From an uncultured Eubacteriales bacterium (GTDB lineage Bacteria > Bacillota > Clostridia > Oscillospirales > QAMX01): a DNA stretch of 64,000 nt. Position 1 is the stretch's first letter; each line of letters begins with the position of its first letter. The position numbers were made by a program, and so were the translations under genes. The notes under the pieces are model-generated. The model made no database searches. It was not told where the DNA came from and worked only from the letters and a program-made list of their open reading frames with translations. The stretch spans positions 205,332-269,331 of the forward strand of contig CAKTEH010000001.1 of the NCBI GenBank assembly GCA_934546935.1, in the 5' to 3' direction. Below, piece after piece: positions 15,615 through 59,390 of the stretch.

Positions 15615-17729
15615 TCACCGGCATATACGCGCACAGCGCGCGCCGATCCGGCTGAGCAGTTCATTGGGGATGCTTGCGCACTGCGATGCCATTGTATAGG
15701 CGCAGATTTCCCGTCCTCCGCTGCGTCCGATCACAACGGCTTCTGAACCGACGGAAACGGATGGGATATCGCTTATGTCCACAATGGTCTGATCCATGCA
15801 TATCCAGCCCAGAATAGGCGCTTTTTCCCCGTCGAGCAGAACATAGCCTTTCCCGTTGGATAACTCGCGCGGCAGCCCGTCGGCATATCCGATAGAAAGG
15901 ACGGCGATGCGGGTTTGCCGCACGGCGGTGAAACGCCGGCCATAACCCGCGCTTTCCCCCGGCTGCAGGGTTTTGAGCGCAGCTACCCGCGCTTTCCAGC
16001 ATAATACCGGCATAAGCCCTGCTGCTCGTGCCTCGCTGCAGGCGCCATACAGCGCGAGGCCGGGGCGCACAGCGTCGCCATAAAATTCGGATCCGCTGAG
16101 GATTCCTGTGCTGGCCAGCAGATGGGATTTCGGCACAGGGATGCCATGCTGTGCAAGCAATTCCCGTACCGAGCGGAATGCCTGCTGTTGGGTTTGACAG
16201 TATGTTTTTCCCATAGGCGTGGAGGAATCGGTGCATAGATGGGAGTAGACGCCGGTTATGCGCAGATTGCGGAGCGTGAAAAGCTCCAGAATGCTTTCGG
16301 AATCTTCAGCGGGAAGCCCTATGCGGTGCATGCCTGTGTCAATTGCAATATGGACACGCAGGCGATGGCCGTAAGCCTGAAGTGCATGTGCATAATCCCG
16401 GTCAAGCACTGTCTGCGTCAGCCTCCAGCGCCGCAGCAAAGGGAAGTCAGACGGATTCGTATATCCAAGAATGAGGATTTCACCGCCTATGCCGCGGCGG
16501 CGCAGCTCGACGCCTTCGCTGAGGCAGGCAACACAAAAGCTGTCTATGCCGCAGCCGCGCAGGATATGCGCGCACAGTACAGCCCCGTGCCCATACGCGT
16601 CGGCCTTTAAAACCGGCATCAGCGCGCAGCGATCCGGAAGCTGTGCCCGCAGGCATTGTATGTTATGCCGCAGGGCCTGCGCGTCGATTTCTACCCAAGC
16701 GCGTCCTTCTGCATCCGGTTTTTTCCGTATCCGGGCTTCTGTTCTTGAGAATATCCAGGCAGCGGCGAGTGATCCGATAAAAATGCAGCAAAAATAAATC
16801 AGACTGTTGTCCGGCAGCAACGCCTGTGCGTGCAGCAGTTTCGCTGCGGCACGCAGGACGACAATGCCAAGCGGATGCAGAATGTATATCCAGGCGCTGA
16901 TCCGCCGTAACTTGGGAGCGGGCTGTACAGGCAGGCAAAGCAGCATACGCATCAGAAAAAAGGATGCTGCCGGCAGCAGCAGATACATGCTGTCATGCCG
17001 CGGCCAGCCCAGCGCGCGCAGCACCAGCGCTTCTGCCGCCATACCGGCCAGGCAGGCGAGAAATGCGGCCAGATTGGCCGTATGCGTCCATTTATGTTTA
17101 AAGCGGGGCAGGCAAGCCCCAAGGGCCAGCAACAGCGGCGTAAAAAACAGGCCGTTTCGCGTATAGGAAAAAATCCGGAACATCCCATTGTAAATGCTTT
17201 CCAAGGCCGGCGCTTTTGCCAGCAGCCCGTAATAGCTGTCGCCGCCCAGCCCGGCCATATATAGCAGCGCACATATTGCCAGCAGCGCCGGTGGGCGCAG
17301 GACCCGGGCAAGCGCGCAGACCAGCGATGCTCCCAGCATCAGCGCCGGGAAATACCACAGATGGTAATAGGTGCCGTCGAAGGCCAGAAACCTGAATGCA
17401 TCCAGCGCGGAGAGGTTTTCATAGTGCCCTGCATATATGGATACAGGCAGATATATGAATGCAGCGGCAAGATATAGCACCGCGGAGCTTTTCAGCAGCC
17501 GGTAAAGCCCCTGCTGATCCGGGTCATGGCCGTTCAGGATCGGAGAAAGGGAAAAATAGCCGGTGACCATTAAAAAGAAAGGTACGGCCAAACGGGCCAG
17601 TACACTTGTTAGCAGAAAATCTGCATCTGCGCTGAAGCTGGACAGCGGGCCTGTATGAATGGCTACAACCAAAGCCGCCGCTACAGGCCTTGCCCAGTCC
17701 AGCGCGCCAGTCTGCTGCCGCCCGTTCAT
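15615..17729 (-). CDS. vanT: membrane-bound serine/alanine racemase VanT (acyltransferase-3 membrane domain fused to a PLP racemase)
   Basis: About 330 N-terminal residues with 10-11 TM helices (ALVVAIHTGP..), then an alanine-racemase fold with the PLP lysine motif VLKADAYGHG. ATG at 17729 follows GGGGAG and overlaps the vanXY stop (ATGA). Confidence 0.85.
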   Translation of the reverse strand: MNGRQQTGALDWARPVAAALVVAIHTGPLSSFSADADFLLTSVLARLAVPFFLMVTGYFSLSPILNGHDPDQQGLYRLLKSSAVLYLAAAFIYLPVSIYAGHYENLSALDAFRFLAFDGTYYHLWYFPALMLGASLVCALARVLRPPALLAICALLYMAGLGGDSYYGLLAKAPALESIYNGMFRIFSYTRNGLFFTPLLLALGACLPRFKHKWTHTANLAAFLACLAGMAAEALVLRALGWPRHDSMYLLLPAASFFLMRMLLCLPVQPAPKLRRISAWIYILHPLGIVVLRAAAKLLHAQALLPDNSLIYFCCIFIGSLAAAWIFSRTEARIRKKPDAEGRAWVEIDAQALRHNIQCLRAQLPDRCALMPVLKADAYGHGAVLCAHILRGCGIDSFCVACLSEGVELRRRGIGGEILILGYTNPSDFPLLRRWRLTQTVLDRDYAHALQAYGHRLRVHIAIDTGMHRIGLPAEDSESILELFTLRNLRITGVYSHLCTDSSTPMGKTYCQTQQQAFRSVRELLAQHGIPVPKSHLLASTGILSGSEFYGDAVRPGLALYGACSEARAAGLMPVLCWKARVAALKTLQPGESAGYGRRFTAVRQTRIAVLSIGYADGLPRELSNGKGYVLLDGEKAPILGWICMDQTIVDISDIPSVSVGSEAVVIGRSGGREICAYTMASQCASIPNELLSRIGARCARICR

Positions 17730-18478
17730 ATGGACGCTCCCCATTGTGTGACGATAAAGCCGCCGCAGTTGTCTCCGGAAATGGTATAGGTAAGGGTATT
17801 GTAGATTTGCAGGGGCATGTCCTCCTGCGCCGGAAGGTAAAACAGCCCCAGATCCCTGCCGGCGGTAAAGTGATGATAGGGGTGGACAGGCGTATAGTTC
17901 CGGATAAAACGGACATATTCTTCCAGCGTCATTTCAAGCTCAGTCATAATCTGGGCATGCGGCATGCCGACAAAGCGGAAATGCCAGGGTTCATGCGCAA
18001 TTCCGGTAATGGCTTCCTTCCCCTCGGGATAACGTTCGATAAAGCCGTAACGCGCGGCATGCCTGCGGAATTGACCGCAGATGCCGGTATAGGGGAATTC
18101 CGGCCGGATAAAGTCGATATGTTCACAATTAAGCCCCAGATCGATGGCAAGCCCCGTCTGATGTTCGCTGCAGCCGGGTTTTGCGACGTACTGTACAGTG
18201 AAATCCGGCCCGTTTTCCGTCATGGATTTCTCCCAGATCGCTTCCTGTTCCCGCAGGCTTCTCCAGGCGCTGACAGGGACAATTTCTCCCCACCCGCCGA
18301 TTTTATCCATCAGCGCGTCAAGCAGCACCAGGGCTGTGCGCTGCAAAAGCATATCCGTTTGTCCGCATAGGGGAGAAAGCGGCGCGCGCGGCTGAAGCTG
18401 AAGCGGGTGATGTGGATTAACAAGGATCAGGTTCCCTTCATAAACTGCGCTTTTGGACAGGTTCAAGCTGTGCATCAT
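17726..18478 (-). CDS. vanXY: D,D-dipeptidase/D,D-carboxypeptidase VanXY (M15 family)
   Basis: Zn-ligand and catalytic motifs SEHQTGLAIDL and EPWHFRF. The start overlaps the ligase stop (ATGA). Confidence 0.85.
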   Translation of the reverse strand: MMHSLNLSKSAVYEGNLILVNPHHPLQLQPRAPLSPLCGQTDMLLQRTALVLLDALMDKIGGWGEIVPVSAWRSLREQEAIWEKSMTENGPDFTVQYVAKPGCSEHQTGLAIDLGLNCEHIDFIRPEFPYTGICGQFRRHAARYGFIERYPEGKEAITGIAHEPWHFRFVGMPHAQIMTELEMTLEEYVRFIRNYTPVHPYHHFTAGRDLGLFYLPAQEDMPLQIYNTLTYTISGDNCGGFIVTQWGASI

Positions 18479-19524
18479 GTGCGCACCGCCAGTTCAATTA
18501 CAAACCGGACGATCTGTGGGAAGGAAAACCCAGCCGCTTTCAGCATCGCGGGGAAGCGGCTGTGCGCAGTGAAGCCGGGGATCGTGTTGACCTCGTTAAA
18601 CAGAATCTGCCCGTCCGGTGTCAGGAACATGTCCACACGGGCGAAACCGCGGCATCCCAGTGCACGGTAAACCGTTTCGGCAGTTTCTTTAATACGTTCG
18701 GCTGTTTTGGCGTCAATGCGGGCAGGAACATGGATTTTAGAACTTTTGAGCGTGTATTTTTCCGAAAAATCAAAAAAACCCTGAGAAAGCTCAATTTCGT
18801 CAACTTCCCCAATATACAGCTGCTCGTTTCCCATCACCGCACAACCGACTTCAAATCCCGCAACCGCCTGTTCTAAGATCAGTACATCGTCATATTGCCG
18901 GGCAAGTACTGCGGCGCTGTCGAGCTGGGTGCGTTGTGTAACCCGTGTAATGCCAAAGGAGGAGCCGGCTTTTAAAGGCTTGACAAACAGCGGATATCCA
19001 AGCTTGTGTGCCTGTGCATGCAAAAATTCAGCGCTCGCGCCAGCCGGGACGATGCTGCCGGCAGGGGAAGGAATGCCTGCCTGTGCGGCAAGACGGTGGG
19101 CGCGGTCTTTATCCATACATAATGCTGAAGCCAGTGTCCCGCAGCCGACCAGCGGGATCCCCGCCAGCTCGCACAACCCCTGTACGCTTCCATCCTCACC
19201 GTTTTGCCCATGAAGTACGGGAAAGACCGCATCAATATAAATGCGCTGGATTTCCTGTCCCTGGAAGCAGAGCAGTGCCCGTTCCCCCCGGTTTACGGAA
19301 AGCATGGCAGGAACACAGTCTCCCGATTCCCGCCATGTATCGGTGCCGATAGCGGAAAATGCACCGCGGTAAAAGTACCACTGCCCGTCCGGCGTTATGC
19401 CGACAGGGACAGGCGTAAAGCGTTGCGGATCCATCGCCTCCAATACGGCCTGGGCCGAGCGGAGGGAAACCGGGTATTCCGGAGATGCACCGCCAAAGAG
19501 GACAACAATTTTTAAATTCGCCAT
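18475..19524 (-). CDS. vanG: D-alanine--D-serine ligase (VanG/VanC-class ATP-grasp ligase)
   Basis: MANLKIVVLFGGASPEY.. N-terminus. ATP-grasp core. FFDFSEKY..VPA and NEVNTIPGFT motifs. Genetically linked to vanXY and vanT. ATG at 19524 follows GGGAG. The 120-codon upstream extension of the ORF overlaps vanS and is not coding. Confidence 0.8.
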   Translation of the reverse strand: MANLKIVVLFGGASPEYPVSLRSAQAVLEAMDPQRFTPVPVGITPDGQWYFYRGAFSAIGTDTWRESGDCVPAMLSVNRGERALLCFQGQEIQRIYIDAVFPVLHGQNGEDGSVQGLCELAGIPLVGCGTLASALCMDKDRAHRLAAQAGIPSPAGSIVPAGASAEFLHAQAHKLGYPLFVKPLKAGSSFGITRVTQRTQLDSAAVLARQYDDVLILEQAVAGFEVGCAVMGNEQLYIGEVDEIELSQGFFDFSEKYTLKSSKIHVPARIDAKTAERIKETAETVYRALGCRGFARVDMFLTPDGQILFNEVNTIPGFTAHSRFPAMLKAAGFSFPQIVRFVIELAVRT

Positions 19525-19565
19525 AAAACAAGAACTCCCGATTTTTAAAGTATGACCGGACACGG

Positions 19566-19605
19566 AAAAACCCCGCCCGGCTATATCAGCATAGCATGGG
19601 CGGGG
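19566..19605 (-). terminator. strong intrinsic terminator between vanS and the ligase gene
   Basis: Minus-strand RNA CCCCGCCC-AT-GCTAT-GCTG-ATAGC-C-GGGCGGGG followed by UUUUU. Confidence 0.7.
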
Positions 19606-19657
19606 ACGGTATGTTTGCGTTCTTTCTTGTAAAAAACCTGTTTTTTCCTGCGTAAAA

Positions 19658-20764
19658 TCATACGAATTTCTTACGGAGAAGCGGGAACCGGACTGTGAAG
19701 GCAATGGTATCGTCCTCGCTTTCCGCGTAGATACTGCCGCCGTGGAGCTCAAGGATCTGCCGTGCGATGGCAAGCCCAAGCCCTGCGCCGCCTGTGCGGG
19801 TCGAGCGGGAAGCGTCCAGGCGGTAAAACTGCTCGAAAATGCGTGAAAGCTTTTCTTTTGGGATCGTGTTTCCATGATTGACAAAGCGGATCACGGCAAA
19901 ATCCTTTCCAAGGGTCTGCTCGGTTTTCCCGGAAATGGAAATGCAGCAGCCTGGGAAGCTGTAACTGACAGCATTGCGCAGAAGATTGTCAAACACGCGT
20001 TCGAGTTTGTCCGCGTCGCATTCCGCCTCCAGCACAGGCGGAAGGTCAATCCGGCAGGACAGCTCCTTTTCCGCAAGCATGGGTTGGAATTCAAAGCATA
20101 ACTGCTCTAAAAGACGGGTCAGGTTGATTTTGCTGTATTCAAGCACAATATGGGAAAGGTTGAATCGGGTAATTTCGAAGAACTCGTCGATCAGATCATT
20201 CAGACGCTCCGCGTTCTTCAGCGTGACGTCGAGATAACGGGCCTGCTGGGCTGCCGGGATTTCCGGTTCGTCGCGCAGCAGGGTCAGATATCCGGTAATG
20301 GACGCAATCGGCGTTTTCAAATCGTGTGCCAGGTAAACGACAAGATCATTTTTTCGCTGCTCAGCTTCCCGGGCCGCTGCTTCGTTGGCCCGGATGCGCG
20401 TATCCGCCTGCTGAAGCATGAACTGGGTTTCCTGTATAAGGGAGGGAAGGCGAAGCTCGGCGGGCTGGGATGATCCGATTTGTGCGCATGCGTCTGAAAC
20501 TGCTGCCAGCGCGCAGATCAGCTGCCACCATAAAGCGATAACAATAACAAGCACGCCGGCAGCAAAGCAGATCAGGACCAAAAGGATGATATAATCGCCC
20601 ATCCAACGCAGCGCCGCGTTGTTGCGCAGGGTAGGGAATGCTGAGCAGATAAAAAAGCAGATGACTGCGCTGACGATCAAAAACCCAAGCCAACATAATG
20701 CAGAAATAAAAAACCGGACAAGAACGCGACGGAGGAGCCGCATACGGAATTCCCGCTTATTCAA
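19658..20764 (-). CDS. vanS: sensor histidine kinase VanS
   Basis: Two N-terminal TM segments. H-box LAHDLKTPIASITGY. N, G1 and G2 boxes (NLLRNAVSY, GGAGLGLAIA). Overlaps vanR by 8 nt. Confidence 0.85.
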   Translation of the reverse strand: MNKREFRMRLLRRVLVRFFISALCWLGFLIVSAVICFFICSAFPTLRNNAALRWMGDYIILLVLICFAAGVLVIVIALWWQLICALAAVSDACAQIGSSQPAELRLPSLIQETQFMLQQADTRIRANEAAAREAEQRKNDLVVYLAHDLKTPIASITGYLTLLRDEPEIPAAQQARYLDVTLKNAERLNDLIDEFFEITRFNLSHIVLEYSKINLTRLLEQLCFEFQPMLAEKELSCRIDLPPVLEAECDADKLERVFDNLLRNAVSYSFPGCCISISGKTEQTLGKDFAVIRFVNHGNTIPKEKLSRIFEQFYRLDASRSTRTGGAGLGLAIARQILELHGGSIYAESEDDTIAFTVRFPLLRKKFV

Positions 20765-56669: not shown

Positions 56670-56880
56670 CATGATATTTTTTGTTTTCCTGTTTGCTGGG
56701 ACAGGAACCAAGTGTGTTTGTTCTGCTGAAATAAAGCTGCGGTCGCTTTTGCGTCTGTTGAGCCAGAAAGAAATTAAGTTATTGAAATAGAAGAATTAGA
56801 GCACTATTTTCAGAAAAGGCGGCCTGCAACTTTGAAAATCTGATAGAGGTAATAAAGAACGGATTTTCCGTTCGTTATGA

Positions 56881-56914
56881 AAAAACACCCTGCAAGCTGA
56901 AACTTACAGGGTGT
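56881..56914 (-). terminator. terminator directly after the erm stop codon
   Basis: ACACCCTG / CAGGGTGT stem flanked by A5 and T7 runs. Confidence 0.6.
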
Positions 56915-56918
56915 TTTT

Positions 56919-57700
56919 TTAGGAATGGGCGGCCGTCTGCCGCCAGTATTGAAAAAAGCAGAGCCATTGAATATAAAGGATATCGCCAAATGACGATATG
57001 GGTGTCAGTTTGGCGCGCCGTAGTGCAGTTGCCACCTGTCTTTTTGTAAGGAGAGCACGGCTTCCTGAGAAGCCATAATGCAGGGAATGCTCCAAAAAAT
57101 ACTGGTATAATGCTCTCTGCGGCAGTGGAATGTCTGGTACGGGTTTTCTATGCAGATGCAGCATCACGCTGTCTGCGTGCGGCGCGGGATGGAAATCCTC
57201 ACGCTTGAAAAAGTATACGATTTTTACGTCGAAAAACGGTTTTAATAGAAGGGAACGCAGGTTTTCGTGCGGTTTTCCGCAAAAACGCTTTGCAGCACCT
57301 TTCTCGAGCACGAGCCATGTCTCCCTAGGCGGGTTCGCGGTTTCCGTCAGCCGGCGAAGGATATCCGTCGTACGGGAAAAGGGAATATTGGCGAATACTT
57401 ATAAGCTCCGGTGGGCAATGGAAGTCGAAAAAAGTTCCCATATGTCAGGCGCAGATTCGGCTGCCCGTTAAAAAGTATGGTCAACCGGTCATAAAGCGCC
57501 CGCTCAAGTTCTATCGCCTGGCTGCGGCAGCTGCAATCCAACAGTGCGCGCGTGATATGACCACGTCCTGCGCCGATCTCCAACACAATATCAGCACTTG
57601 TGATGTTCGTTAAACGTAACAGCCGGTTAATCGTGGAGCGGCTTGTTGGGAAATTTTGAGAGACAGAAAGGGGATGGCTAAATTTCGATATGGAATTCAA
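56919..57700 (-). pseudogene. erm: Erm-type 23S rRNA (adenine-N6)-methyltransferase, split by a single -1 frameshift near 57392-57400
   Basis: ORF a: ..SQNFPTSRSTINRLL..DIVLEIGAGRGHIT..AIE..GAYK. ORF b frame, open from the same spot: VFANIPFSRTTDILRRL..VWLVLEKGAAKRF..REDFHPAPHADS..LTKRQVATALRRAKL. TTG start at 57700 lies 6 nt after GAGGTG. Confidence 0.7.
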
Positions 57701-57837
57701 AATATACACCTCATTCGTTCGTTTTTGACAAATAAGGCACAACAAAAACACCATTATGTTACAGACGGCCAGTTTTTTGTTATGCCTGATCAGCGAATAC
57801 GAATGATGGTGAATATAAAAAGTTTCAACAACTCCTC
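57701..57837 (-). promoter_or_regulatory. erm-type translational attenuator: leader ORF plus nested stems that sequester the erm SD
   Basis: Leader codons CACCAUCAUUCGUAUUCG (57794-57811) pair with CGAACGAAUGAGGUG (57707-57721, containing the SD GAGGUG). An inner 13-14 bp stem forms between GGCAUAACAAAAA and UUUUUGUUGUGCC. Confidence 0.5.
57790..57828 (-). CDS. candidate 12-aa erm leader peptide M-KLFIFTIIRIR (TTG start)
   Basis: GAGGAG SD at 57832-57837, then TTG TTG AAA CTT TTT ATA TTC ACC ATC ATT CGT ATT CGC TGA. Confidence 0.4.
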   Translation of the reverse strand: MKLFIFTIIRIR

Positions 57838-57992
57838 AAAATTTAGATTTTACAAAACGGTGATATTCTGTCTTACTCAAAAATAGTAAAACTTCTGCAA
57901 TGCTTTGCACTAAACGGGTTATTTACAATAAGAGAAAAACCCGATTTCAGATCAGCTGGGTACATCCTGTGTGAGCGGATATTTGTAAAATC

Positions 57993-59390
57993 TTATTGCC
58001 GCATGGATGCCAATTTTTTTCGCCAGCTGCCTTTTGCGTACCAAAGCAGCAGGCAGGCAAAGCGCGTTAAGTTATCGGCAACCATGCAGATCCATACAGA
58101 TGCAAGATGAAGATGGAAGACGCAGACGCACAGCCAAGAAAAGACGATGCGCACACCCCACATCGCTGCGATTGAAATAAAGAAGGGGATTTTTGTTTCT
58201 CCGATCCCGTTAAAGGTGCCTTCAAGAATGATGACAACTGCGAAAAACGGCTCGGAGACGGCCACAATGCGCAGTACCTGCGCGCCCAAAGCGATAACAT
58301 CCGGATCCGGCGTAAACAGGCGCATCATGAATGCGGGAAAGCAGAATAAAAGTATAGCAAGCGTACCCATGAGGGTGACTGCAATGGCGGTGATGGTTGA
58401 GGAATACTGGATCAGCTTGTGTTCGTCCCGTGCACCGGCGCTATGACCGGAAAGGGTTGCCGCTGCGGCCTGCATGCCGTATCCCGGGATATAAAAGGCT
58501 TGCTCCGCAGTGATGGCAATGGAATGGGCGGCAACGGAAATTGTACCAAGCCGGGCAATGAGGGAGGTAAAAACTACCTGGCCAAGACAGGCCCCAACCC
58601 GTTCAGCGGCAATTGGCATGCCAATACGCACGCATTGCCGGAGGATTTCCCGATCGTGACGCAGCTTCTGACCGCGCAACCCAAGCTCCCGGCTGCGGTA
58701 AGCTGCACAGGCCATCATAATACCGCCGGCTACATAGGCAGTGGCTGTAGCAATTGCTGCGCCAGTTACACCCAGCCCGGCGCCCCATACAGGCACAGAA
58801 AGTCCAAAAATACGGAGTGTACGTGGAACATTGATGAAAAGGAAGTTGAGGGTAATGTTGATGGCGTTCATGCAGGTGTTGATTAGCATGGGCGTCTTTG
58901 CATTTCCGGTGGCGCGGAGTACGGAACCGAAAATTATGCTGGATGCGCGAAAGAGCATGGGAGAGCAGACGATAGCAAAATAAACGCCGGCGTCATGGCG
59001 GATCTCCGGATCGGCGCCAAGCCATCCGGGCAGGAAAGGGCTGATGGAAAGTGTGAGCACACCCAATCCGCAGCCAAGGATCAAAATGAGCAGTACAGAC
59101 TGCATTGCGGCGCGATGCGCGCGGGCTTCGTCCGCCGCACCGCGCGCACGGGAGATACAGGAAAGTATACCCATTGCCATGGCAAACATCGGCGCATTGA
59201 TCAGCCACGTCATGGTGGTGGTCAGCCCGACAGCCGCCGATGCGTGCGCGCCGATAGCGCCCACCTGAGCAGTATCGGCATAGGATACAACGGTTTGCAG
59301 CGCCTGCTCCATAATCGTCGGCCAGGCTAGGGAAAAAATTGCGCGCATCATATTGCGGTCGTGCAGCGTAGAGCGAATGGAATTGAACAT
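57993..59390 (-). CDS. MATE-family efflux transporter
   Basis: 12-TM MatE repeat architecture. N-terminus ..WPTIMEQALQTVVSYADTAQVG. Confidence 0.85.
   Translation of the reverse strand: MFNSIRSTLHDRNMMRAIFSLAWPTIMEQALQTVVSYADTAQVGAIGAHASAAVGLTTTMTWLINAPMFAMAMGILSCISRARGAADEARAHRAAMQSVLLILILGCGLGVLTLSISPFLPGWLGADPEIRHDAGVYFAIVCSPMLFRASSIIFGSVLRATGNAKTPMLINTCMNAINITLNFLFINVPRTLRIFGLSVPVWGAGLGVTGAAIATATAYVAGGIMMACAAYRSRELGLRGQKLRHDREILRQCVRIGMPIAAERVGACLGQVVFTSLIARLGTISVAAHSIAITAEQAFYIPGYGMQAAAATLSGHSAGARDEHKLIQYSSTITAIAVTLMGTLAILLFCFPAFMMRLFTPDPDVIALGAQVLRIVAVSEPFFAVVIILEGTFNGIGETKIPFFISIAAMWGVRIVFSWLCVCVFHLHLASVWICMVADNLTRFACLLLWYAKGSWRKKLASMRQ

Follow-up and report, generated by a model that had tools for sequence, protein, structure and literature searches.

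A probable macrolide-sensing leader-peptide attenuator, now decayed, upstream of a frameshifted erm-like gene of an uncultured Eubacteriales bacterium

The erm-like locus and its upstream region

The DNA considered here, which we call the window, is a stretch of 64,000 nucleotides (nt) from an uncultured Eubacteriales bacterium (GenBank assembly GCA_934546935.1, contig CAKTEH010000001.1, forward-strand positions 205,332 to 269,331). Its minus strand carries a gene related to those for Erm 23S rRNA (A2058) methyltransferases, which is broken in two by a frameshift and preceded by a short leader open reading frame (ORF) and two nested RNA helices. This upstream region, a candidate drug-sensing attenuator, is the subject of the present analysis. 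All positions below are those of the window, and all window features described lie on its minus strand.

The gene is represented by an N-terminal fragment of 101 codons with a TTG start at 57700 (57398-57700) and by a C-terminal fragment of 159 codons plus stop in the -1 frame (56919-57398). Both match PF00398 and the NCBIfam model of Erm 23S rRNA (A2058) methyltransferases, NF000499 (Erm23S_rRNA_broad), with 66.1 and 75.1 bits, respectively. These separate scores from a frameshifted gene do not reach the curated NF000499 cut-off of 212 bits, which is passed by four intact relatives (219.9, 213.2, 228.5, and 234.3 bits). A protein search detected hundreds of such intact relatives of about 260 amino acids (aa) in metagenome-assembled genomes of Oscillospiraceae and other Clostridia. 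The nearest ones are 82%, 74%, and 68% identical to the C-terminal fragment, the first value being that of the intact 260-aa protein P0002. The intact relatives reach no named Erm class, as they score 80-160 bits with the NCBIfam class models, the cut-offs of which are 320-800 bits.

Directly 5′ of this gene and in the same orientation, 89 nt before the TTG at 57700, lies the leader ORF (57790-57831), which encodes (M)(L)KLFIFTIIRIR in 12-13 codons and ends with a TGA at 57792-57790. It has in-frame TTG codons at 57831 and 57828 and is preceded by a Shine-Dalgarno (SD)-like GAGGAG (57832-57837), which was read in the sequence and aligns with the AGGAG or GGAG of homologous loci. A preliminary description of this DNA, made from the sequence alone, had reported this GAGGAG and this ORF, and both are indeed found there. 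Leader and erm-like gene are presumably carried by one transcript. The last three sense codons, CGT-ATT-CGC (57793-57801), encode Arg-Ile-Arg immediately before the TGA, i.e. an instance of Arg/Lys-X-Arg/Lys, the motif of the so-called +X+ leaders, with ATT (57798-57796) as predicted P-site codon and CGC (57795-57793) as predicted A-site codon.

The RNA of this region (57845-57690) folds with a minimum free energy (MFE) of -42.8 kcal/mol, against a mean of -28.7 (standard deviation 3.5) for dinucleotide-shuffled sequences (z -4.07), and none of the 200 shuffles folds as well. The MFE structure contains both stems of the preliminary description. The outer one, proposed there as a 15-bp pairing over the whole erm SD, is a helix of 15 base pairs (bp) with two bulges, in which CACC (57811-57808) pairs with GGUG (57710-57707), UCAUUCGU (57806-57799) with ACGAAUGA (57718-57711), and UCG (57796-57794) with CGA (57721-57719). 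It is lengthened by UGAU/GUCA (57792-57789 / 57729-57726) and UAU/AUA, its 5′ arm (UAU, CACC, UCAUUCGU, UCG, and UGAU) spanning 57789-57815 and its 3′ arm 57703-57729. All six bases of the erm SD GAGGUG (57712-57707), which is located 6 nt before the TTG at 57700 and for which CACC acts as anti-SD, are paired in this structure, and the two arms taken as an isolated duplex have an energy of -18.1 kcal/mol. The nested stem, previously estimated at about 13 bp with one G-U pair, turned out to have 14 bp with one U-G wobble (57787-57774 / 57748-57735); it forms the base of an inner hairpin of -19.0 kcal/mol (57735-57787), which also has an apical stem of 5 bp (57769-57765 / 57754-57750). The first G-C pair of this hairpin lies 6 nt past the A-site codon, and the hairpin is followed by the U-rich, terminator-like tail UUAUUUGUC (57727-57735; six U in eight positions). 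Together with GCC (57738-57736), this tail is an alternative partner of the erm ribosome-binding site (RBS), with which it can form a hairpin of 11 bp and -12.0 kcal/mol in isolation (57738-57728 / 57718-57708).

Leader peptides and covarying helices in homologous loci

The final eight codons of the leader ORF match codon for codon, in alignments, the leaders MCTIIRIR*, MHTIIRIR*, and MGIVIRIR* of homologous loci. These belong to the three closest intact genes, each of which is preceded by an SD-like AGGAG and an 8-codon ORF, shows the same outer pairing onto GAGGUG or GGGGUG, and has a nested hairpin of different sequence that still pairs. More generally, among 84 loci that contain a related Erm-like gene, 62 have a short ORF in which Arg-X-Arg is followed by 0-2 further residues and a stop; in shuffled upstream regions, such an ORF is obtained at 10.4 loci on average and at 18 loci at most. 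Metagenome loci add further leaders (for example MNIIIRIR*, MHTIIRIR*, MNVIIRIR*, MAICIRIR*, and MRIRK*).

The motif is maintained through numerous codon changes. Among 84 distinct leader ends, the first Arg is encoded by CGC (30), CGT (27), CGG (15), AGA (6), AGG (4), or CGA (2), and the second one by CGC (36), CGT (22), CGG (9), AGA (9), AGG (5), or CGA (3). The stop codon is TAA in 55, TGA in 23, and TAG in 6 of them, and X is Ile in 58 of the 84 distinct leaders. Start codons of 63 distinct leaders are ATG (52), GTG (6), and TTG (5), and the most common length through the second Arg is eight codons (31 of 63). As Arg is kept across switches between CGN and AGR codons, selection acts on the leader peptide and not on the RNA alone.

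A second group of loci (L041, L045, L056, L058-L061, L067, L068, L076, and L085), mostly labelled Lachnospiraceae and others, has far longer upstream regions (200-260 nt) with several hairpins. The Arg-X-Arg end is kept in this group (leaders include MRIRK*, MWTFIRMR*, MWGCIRIR*, and MSAAIRLR*), but the RBS (AAGGAGG or GGAGGG) and the architecture differ.

Sequestration of the erm SD by the leader region is likewise conserved, as at least five of the six SD bases are paired with it in the MFE structures of 64 of the 67 distinct loci. The outer helix was assessed by per-sequence folds and by comparing arms from the same locus with arms from different loci, since the arms differ in length and register and are therefore unfit for column alignment. 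Duplexes between arms of the same locus have a mean energy of -25.6 kcal/mol, versus -19.6 kcal/mol for arms from different loci, and the own 3′ arm is among the top five of 44 for 30 of the 44 loci (a rank of about 22 is expected without co-adaptation). In the first Arg codon, the third base, which is synonymous, forms U:A pairs 21 times, C:G pairs 16 times, and G:C pairs 11 times. At the base of the inner hairpin, pair-keeping changes on both sides are observed for seven of eight pairs in alignment A3 (23 sequences) and for six of seven pairs in alignment A8 (32 sequences). The combination of MAFFT and RNAalifold recovered only the base of the inner stem, plus the SD:anti-SD helix in A8; applied to a mixed set of window-type and termite-type sequences, RNAalifold returned spurious or alternative pairing. 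Covariation in homologous loci, by which the preliminary description proposed to judge its attenuator, is thus present in the inner stem and between the two outer arms. Judged by such comparative evidence, the region is a genuine regulatory element.

Two architectural types can be distinguished. Most loci have an anti-SD (ACAYCUC) directly 5′ of the leader start, and their leader ORF in its entirety makes up the 5′ arm of a helix that is at least 30 bp long. The anti-SD occupies the space between the SD-like core of the leader and its start codon, and in many folds this core is also paired with the start codon of erm and the codon after it. According to these folds, the full-length RNA of most loci would lock both ribosome-binding sites. 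In the second type, to which the window and loci L003, L004, L005, and L099 belong, the anti-SD is made up of leader codons 2-3 (UGC ACC). The 3′ arm is shorter to match, and the helix does not include the leader start. That the SD is still sequestered despite this change of partner is further evidence that its sequestration by the leader is selected.

Relationship to known drug-sensing leaders

The leader belongs to the +X+ (RLR) class of macrolide-arrest peptides and is not ErmC-like. Such motifs are common in the leaders of erm, mef, and msr genes (PMC8298421; PMC12583479), and the minimal peptide MRLR is enough for arrest (PMC12583479). ErmDL arrests the ribosome at R6-L7-R8, where Leu7 occupies the P-site and Arg8 the A-site, and its motif is critical for telithromycin arrest and contributes to erythromycin arrest (PMC8298421).

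The closest formal analogues of the leader family described here are Mef(E)L/Mef(A)L and Msr(A)L. The former is the 8-codon peptide MTASMRLR, with RLR before the stop, and the latter reads MTASMRLK (PMC4335068). Both resemble our leaders in their eight codons, in having Arg/Lys-X-Arg/Lys as motif directly before the stop, in their position upstream of a macrolide resistance gene, and in the terminator-like hairpin downstream of the leader; their mode of action is ribosome-mediated attenuation (PMC4335068; PMC10314930). More precisely, Mef(E)L acts by transcription attenuation (PMC4335068), and the ribosome stalled on MsrDL obstructs a terminator (PMC10314930). Several differences are nevertheless apparent. 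The residues before the motif are TASM in Mef(E)L and hydrophobic ones (I/V/C) in our leaders, in which X is Ile, and the controlled gene here encodes an Erm methyltransferase-like protein. The 5′ region of Mef(E)L comprises 327 nt and four stem-loops, whereas the regions studied here are compact, with nested helices within 80-100 nt. Here the downstream SD is a direct pairing partner of the leader RNA, and no RNA sequence homology was seen between the two systems.

ErmDL, ErmKL, and ErmJL (MTH(S/A)MRLRFPTLNQ) share with our leaders the erm gene and the Arg-X-Arg motif, of which X occupies the P-site and Arg the A-site (PMC8298421). However, these leaders continue for six codons past RLR, whereas ours reach the stop immediately or one codon later; the Erm proteins are also distant, and the hairpin arrangement is different.

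A single direct helix between leader and RBS has parallels elsewhere. In cat-86 and cmlA, which have chloramphenicol-inducible leaders, the 3′ part of the short leader ORF is joined to the RBS of the resistance gene by one helix, which the arrested ribosome melts directly. These systems differ from ours in drug and arrest motif and have no nested terminator-like hairpin. Arginine sensing through the two Arg codons was considered and rejected, as there is no regulatory codon run, the gene is unrelated to arginine, and the motif is that of macrolide arrest.

We thus regard the leaders as a previously unnamed attenuator family associated with an unnamed Erm clade, which has a compact nested layout and represents a known kind of switch. 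Rfam covariance models gave only chance-level matches (E 4 to 9), and no description of the family was found in Rfam or in a literature search, an absence that does not prove novelty. The literature search also retrieved no experimental report on this Erm clade, and a search with the peptide motif returned only noise.

Proposed mechanism and ribosome modeling

These observations make it probable that the window carries a decayed copy of a leader-peptide attenuator that senses macrolides or ketolides and belongs to an Erm clade of gut and other anaerobic Clostridia. Working copies would have a leader, most often of eight codons, whose Ile-Arg-Ile-Arg end is separated from the stop by at most one further codon (Lys, Asn, or Gln). 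A drug-bound ribosome would presumably stall while the Ile codon occupies the P-site and the last Arg codon the A-site, as in other +X+ leaders; arrest at the Arg-Ile-Arg of the window is predicted with the geometry of R6-L7-R8 in ErmDL (PMC8298421). The leader RNA would serve as 5′ arm of the long helix whose 3′ arm holds the erm SD, and the nested, GC-based hairpin would begin 6-7 nt past the arrest codon, followed in most loci by a U-run. The arrested ribosome would keep the 5′ arm single-stranded. As the hairpin adjoins the leading edge of this ribosome and is terminator-like, arrest would probably also modulate premature termination, as for ermK, mef(E)/mel, and msrD.

Melting of the outer stem by a stalled ribosome, which the preliminary description had proposed, is compatible with the window geometry. 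A ribosome with AUU (57798-57796) in the P-site would cover approximately 57810-57784 and hence the entire 5′ arm, with CACC at positions -13 to -10. The anti-SD of window-type loci being inside the ribosome footprint, arrest should release the erm ribosome-binding site. Exposure of the SD, the second half of that proposal, is less well supported by modeling, as the RBS becomes easy to open only with a leading edge at about +11. The predicted opening cost is 3.7 kcal/mol for a leading edge at +11 with the hairpin base intact, 6.1 kcal/mol at +12, and 8.7 kcal/mol at +13, and it is 10.6 kcal/mol when the ribosome has moved one codon further, onto the stop. Takyar, Hickerson and Noller are said to have placed the helicase site of the ribosome at about +11 in 2005. 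When pairing is allowed only 3′ of the ribosome, the mean cost over the family falls from 12.9 to 5.3 (+11) or 7.6 (+14) kcal/mol, and it rises with the position of the edge in 39 of the 67 loci and falls in one. Footprint modeling thus provides only conditional support for SD exposure upon arrest, which is not assured.

A number of results weigh against the attenuator as formulated above. First, masking a footprint from P-12 to P+14 leaves the mean unpaired probability of the SD at 0.08; for the window, it changes from 0.00 to 0.16, and in this model the freed 3′ arm re-pairs with GCC and the U-rich stretch that follows the inner hairpin. Opening the window RBS costs 10.8 kcal/mol in the free RNA and 10.4 kcal/mol with the leading edge at +14, and the opening cost over the family is unchanged if pairing across the ribosome is allowed. 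Secondly, the anti-SD is located 15-27 nt 5′ of the predicted P-site, beyond the footprint, in 49 of the 67 loci, so that direct melting of the SD:anti-SD pairs by the arrested ribosome is not expected there. Thirdly, these pairs are nearly invariant and do not covary, the SD being constrained by 16S rRNA. Translation of the leader is also problematic: its SD-like core has an unusual spacing of 12-14 nt from the start codon in 34 of 48 cases, and in the window GAGGAG is 0 and 3 nt from the two TTG codons, the only in-frame starts available, which makes leader translation uncertain at this locus. Finally, a simple scan did not call the inner hairpin of the window a terminator, its loop being longer than 8 nt.

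A more specific scheme, which we consider unlikely, is an undescribed attenuator design that would tell an arrested from a terminating ribosome by a single codon. A ribosome arrested on Ile-Arg would have its leading edge (+12/+13) right where the terminator-like hairpin begins, and a ribosome moving on to the stop codon would open the GC base of the hairpin, the freed 3′ strand of which, together with the U-tail (GCC-UUAUUUGU in the window), would then sequester the erm SD. Normal leader translation would consequently never expose the SD, and drug arrest alone would do so. In most members, the closed state would also lock the SD and start of the leader, making the switch strictly co-transcriptional.

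Alternative explanations

Four other explanations were weighed against the attenuator proposed above. The most serious one, to which we nevertheless give distinctly less than even weight, is that regulation takes place mainly at the level of transcription termination. An intrinsic terminator would be formed by the inner hairpin and U-run and be prevented or weakened by a ribosome arrested at the base of the hairpin, and the outer helix would be a fail-safe for read-through or would set a low constant translation rate. Of 44 loci, 32 have at least five U among the eight positions after the inner hairpin. In 28 of the 44, the hairpin begins 6-7 nt past the arrest codon, with or without an extra Lys, Asn, or Gln codon, which argues that this distance is set by the arrest codon and not by the stop codon. 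For example, in L024, where the scan tool predicts a TTGACA-17-TAAAAT promoter 36 nt before the leader, the homologous hairpin was called a terminator by the same tool (one found versus 0.1 expected). Moreover, as the start and SD of the leader are inside the outer helix in most loci, translation of the leader should be possible only co-transcriptionally, and the position of the anti-SD outside the footprint in 49 of 67 loci and the footprint models in which the SD is not freed point in the same direction.

Known systems are also consistent with such a mode: MsrDL acts by obstructing a terminator (PMC10314930), and the closest known leaders, Mef(E)L and ErmKL, use transcription attenuation (PMC4335068, in which ermK is cited as combining transcriptional and translational attenuation). 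However, the hairpin starts at +12/+13 from the P-site, so the structure may persist and its occlusion by the ribosome is uncertain. The stem of the window is A-U rich with an interrupted tail (UUAUUUGU) and, as mentioned above, was not called by the simple scan, and some loci, such as L008, have no U-run. In addition, the outer arms covary strongly, which speaks for selection on the leader's sequestration of the SD as such. A transcriptional contribution would be compatible with translational unmasking and with the attenuator that we favor as best explanation, and in our judgment its presence and its absence are about evenly balanced.

Another hypothesis, which we find improbable, is that the region functions as RNA structure only, with an untranslated leader, in mRNA stability, in binding of a protein or small molecule, or in constitutive repression of a costly gene. 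The spacing of 12-14 nt between SD-like core and leader start, the sequestration of this start in most loci, and the lack of a canonical start in the window would fit such a role. It is however difficult to reconcile with the conservation of the reading frame, of the length (eight codons in 31 of 63 leaders), and of the Arg-X-Arg end through synonymous, CGN/AGR, and stop-codon changes, or with the fact that this end is a known macrolide arrest motif ahead of a macrolide-resistance-type gene; in addition, no Rfam family matches.

The preliminary description considered the leader reminiscent of ErmC, which would imply an attenuator of the IFVI class with a hydrophobic, I/F-rich peptide as sensor. 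ErmCL has 19 codons with the arrest site IFVI, and its RNA comprises four segments in alternating hairpins, the ermC SD being freed indirectly when segment 2 captures segment 3. The general logic is alike (a translated leader on which a drug-bound ribosome arrests, thereby disturbing an SD-sequestering structure), and the FIFTI of the window ORF does resemble IFVI. This similarity is accidental, because KLFIF is a window-specific extension located upstream of the codon at which all close homologues start; none of these has the FIFTI segment, and the conserved core is IRIR-stop. The helices are nested (1:4 with 2:3) and not alternating as the 1:2 / 3:4 hairpins of ermC, the SD region has the leader itself as direct pairing partner, and no segment dedicated to capture was found, the freed arm re-pairing with the hairpin tail in our model. 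Comparison with known erm leaders, which the preliminary description recommended, leads to ErmDL, ErmKL, Mef(E)L, and Msr(A)L instead, and an ErmC-type attenuator is thus highly improbable. Finally, although 114 ORFs of at least 20 aa occur in 7 kb and the gene is a pseudogene, a chance hairpin next to a chance short ORF in a decaying intergenic region can practically be dismissed in view of the shuffling results (z -4.07, 0 of 200) and of conservation with covariation across dozens of loci. A leader-peptide attenuator before an erm-family gene, as first proposed from the sequence of the window, is supported by this same conservation and covariation.

Decay of the window locus

The frame break of the erm-like gene corresponds to one base missing at approximately 57398-57400 compared with intact relatives. 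The same break is present in L087, a contig assembled independently from short reads of a Hadza gut metagenome, which differs from the window by three substitutions in the common region; the close relative L099 has one extra A at this site. Furthermore, the window fragments are changed at four of 47 invariant Erm columns (L18P, which falls within the SQNFL motif, D66E, D89N, and L249F), exceeding all 37 intact relatives, which have 0-3 such violations each in a leave-one-out comparison. Over the first nine residues, small, frame-restoring indels have scrambled the sequence compared with L003 and L099.

L099 (701-1530), the nearest metagenome relative (86% identity over the best segment), has frame breaks of its own at sites other than that of the window: its ORFs 701-1054 and 949-1530 are in different frames, and its C-terminus is altered. 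These breaks reflect either a second independent pseudogenization or indel errors in a long assembly.

The regulatory region has been affected as well. The position at which homologues start their leader (ATG in L003, L004, and L005; TTG in L099) is occupied by ATA in the window (57814-57816; alignments A4 and A6). The promoter of the closest intact relatives, TTGCAA-17-TATAAT with a TG, is not recognizable in the window, where it aligns weakly to CAGCTG/CTTATT. A weak promoter-like AAGACA-16-TAAAAT (57847-57874) has 9 of 12 matches, which is at chance level (three sites found versus 2.1 expected). What is still present in the window are the arrest codons, both helices, and the spacing between arrest codon and hairpin. 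The earlier statement that the regulator is apparently intact thus holds for the RNA helices and not for the leader start and promoter.

Given that the frameshift is shared by a second strain, that invariant residues are changed, that the leader ATG is lost, and that no promoter is evident, the window locus is a relic: its erm gene is a pseudogene, and the frameshift is real and not very recent. The suggestion of a recent inactivation does not agree with a break common to two strains that differ by single-nucleotide polymorphisms, nor with the four altered invariant columns. The erm gene of this genome is dead and should not count as a resistance determinant.

An inverted repeat, TTGACA-N13-TGTCAA, lies between promoter and leader in L003 (124-148), L004 (approximately 2293-2317, in the version TTGACA ... 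GTCA), and L099 (494-518), and is absent from the window. It could be an operator or a 5′ hairpin in these closest relatives. Just past the erm stop of the window, a hairpin (ACACCCUG...CAGGGUGU) followed by a T-run (56880-56914), identified by reading the sequence, is likely the intrinsic terminator of the cassette; it is flanked by A-runs on its 5′ side and was not listed by the simple terminator scan.

Distribution and genomic context

Erm methyltransferases are the main cause of resistance against macrolides, lincosamides as well as streptogramin B, and the unnamed Erm clade appears to carry its own Arg-X-Arg drug-sensing leader, a class that responds to ketolides as well as macrolides in ErmDL (PMC8298421). 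Judging from sequence, the leader would provide independent evidence that the associated genes are inducible resistance genes of commensals, and not housekeeping KsgA-like enzymes. The leader family should therefore be useful for resistome annotation, with a short ORF, most often of eight codons, ending in IRIR, then a nested hairpin and GAGGUGUAUUUUUU-AUG as signature. Its compact nested architecture also constitutes a natural series for the coupling of arrest position, terminator, and SD masking.

Relatives are encoded at 328 places in a collection comprising one genome for each of 185,579 species. Within the taxonomic family of the window, only one of the 34 other genomes has a match, which is partial. 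The erm-like gene is thus sporadic in this family and was probably acquired horizontally. Serine recombinase (resolvase) genes are located 1-2 kb downstream of the erm-like gene in L004 (4346-5674) and L005 (4423-5751), where they adjoin feoA/feoB and an iron-dependent repressor gene. The presence of resolvases near erm in two of the closest intact loci, together with the sporadic distribution, hints at mobility. DNA-level searches in the genomes of 60 relatives and in a plasmid collection gave a single match of 48 nt (in G027) and nothing useful.

The gene upstream of the leader (57993-59390) encodes a MATE family efflux transporter (TIGR00797, 265 bits) and ends about 150 nt from the leader. 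It shows 75% DNA identity to its counterpart in G001, a genome of the same genus, which was inspected for an unoccupied version of the site and whose contig ends about 180 nt past the MATE gene. Further away, a vanG-type glycopeptide-resistance-like gene set is found at 15615-19884. It includes a D-Ala-D-Ser ligase (519 bits with NF000091 VanG, cut-off 495), in whose listed ORF about 120 additional N-terminal aa have no match, a membrane-bound serine racemase VanT (467.7 bits with the VanT-G C-terminal model, cut-off 460), and a VanXY-G protein whose 246 bits are under the cut-off of 500. The leader pattern ATYCGNATYCGNTRA occurs two more times in the genome, both within coding regions. These copies were considered as further attenuators and rejected as chance occurrences, one being antisense in the vanT-like ORF and the other at the C-terminus of an unrelated ORF.

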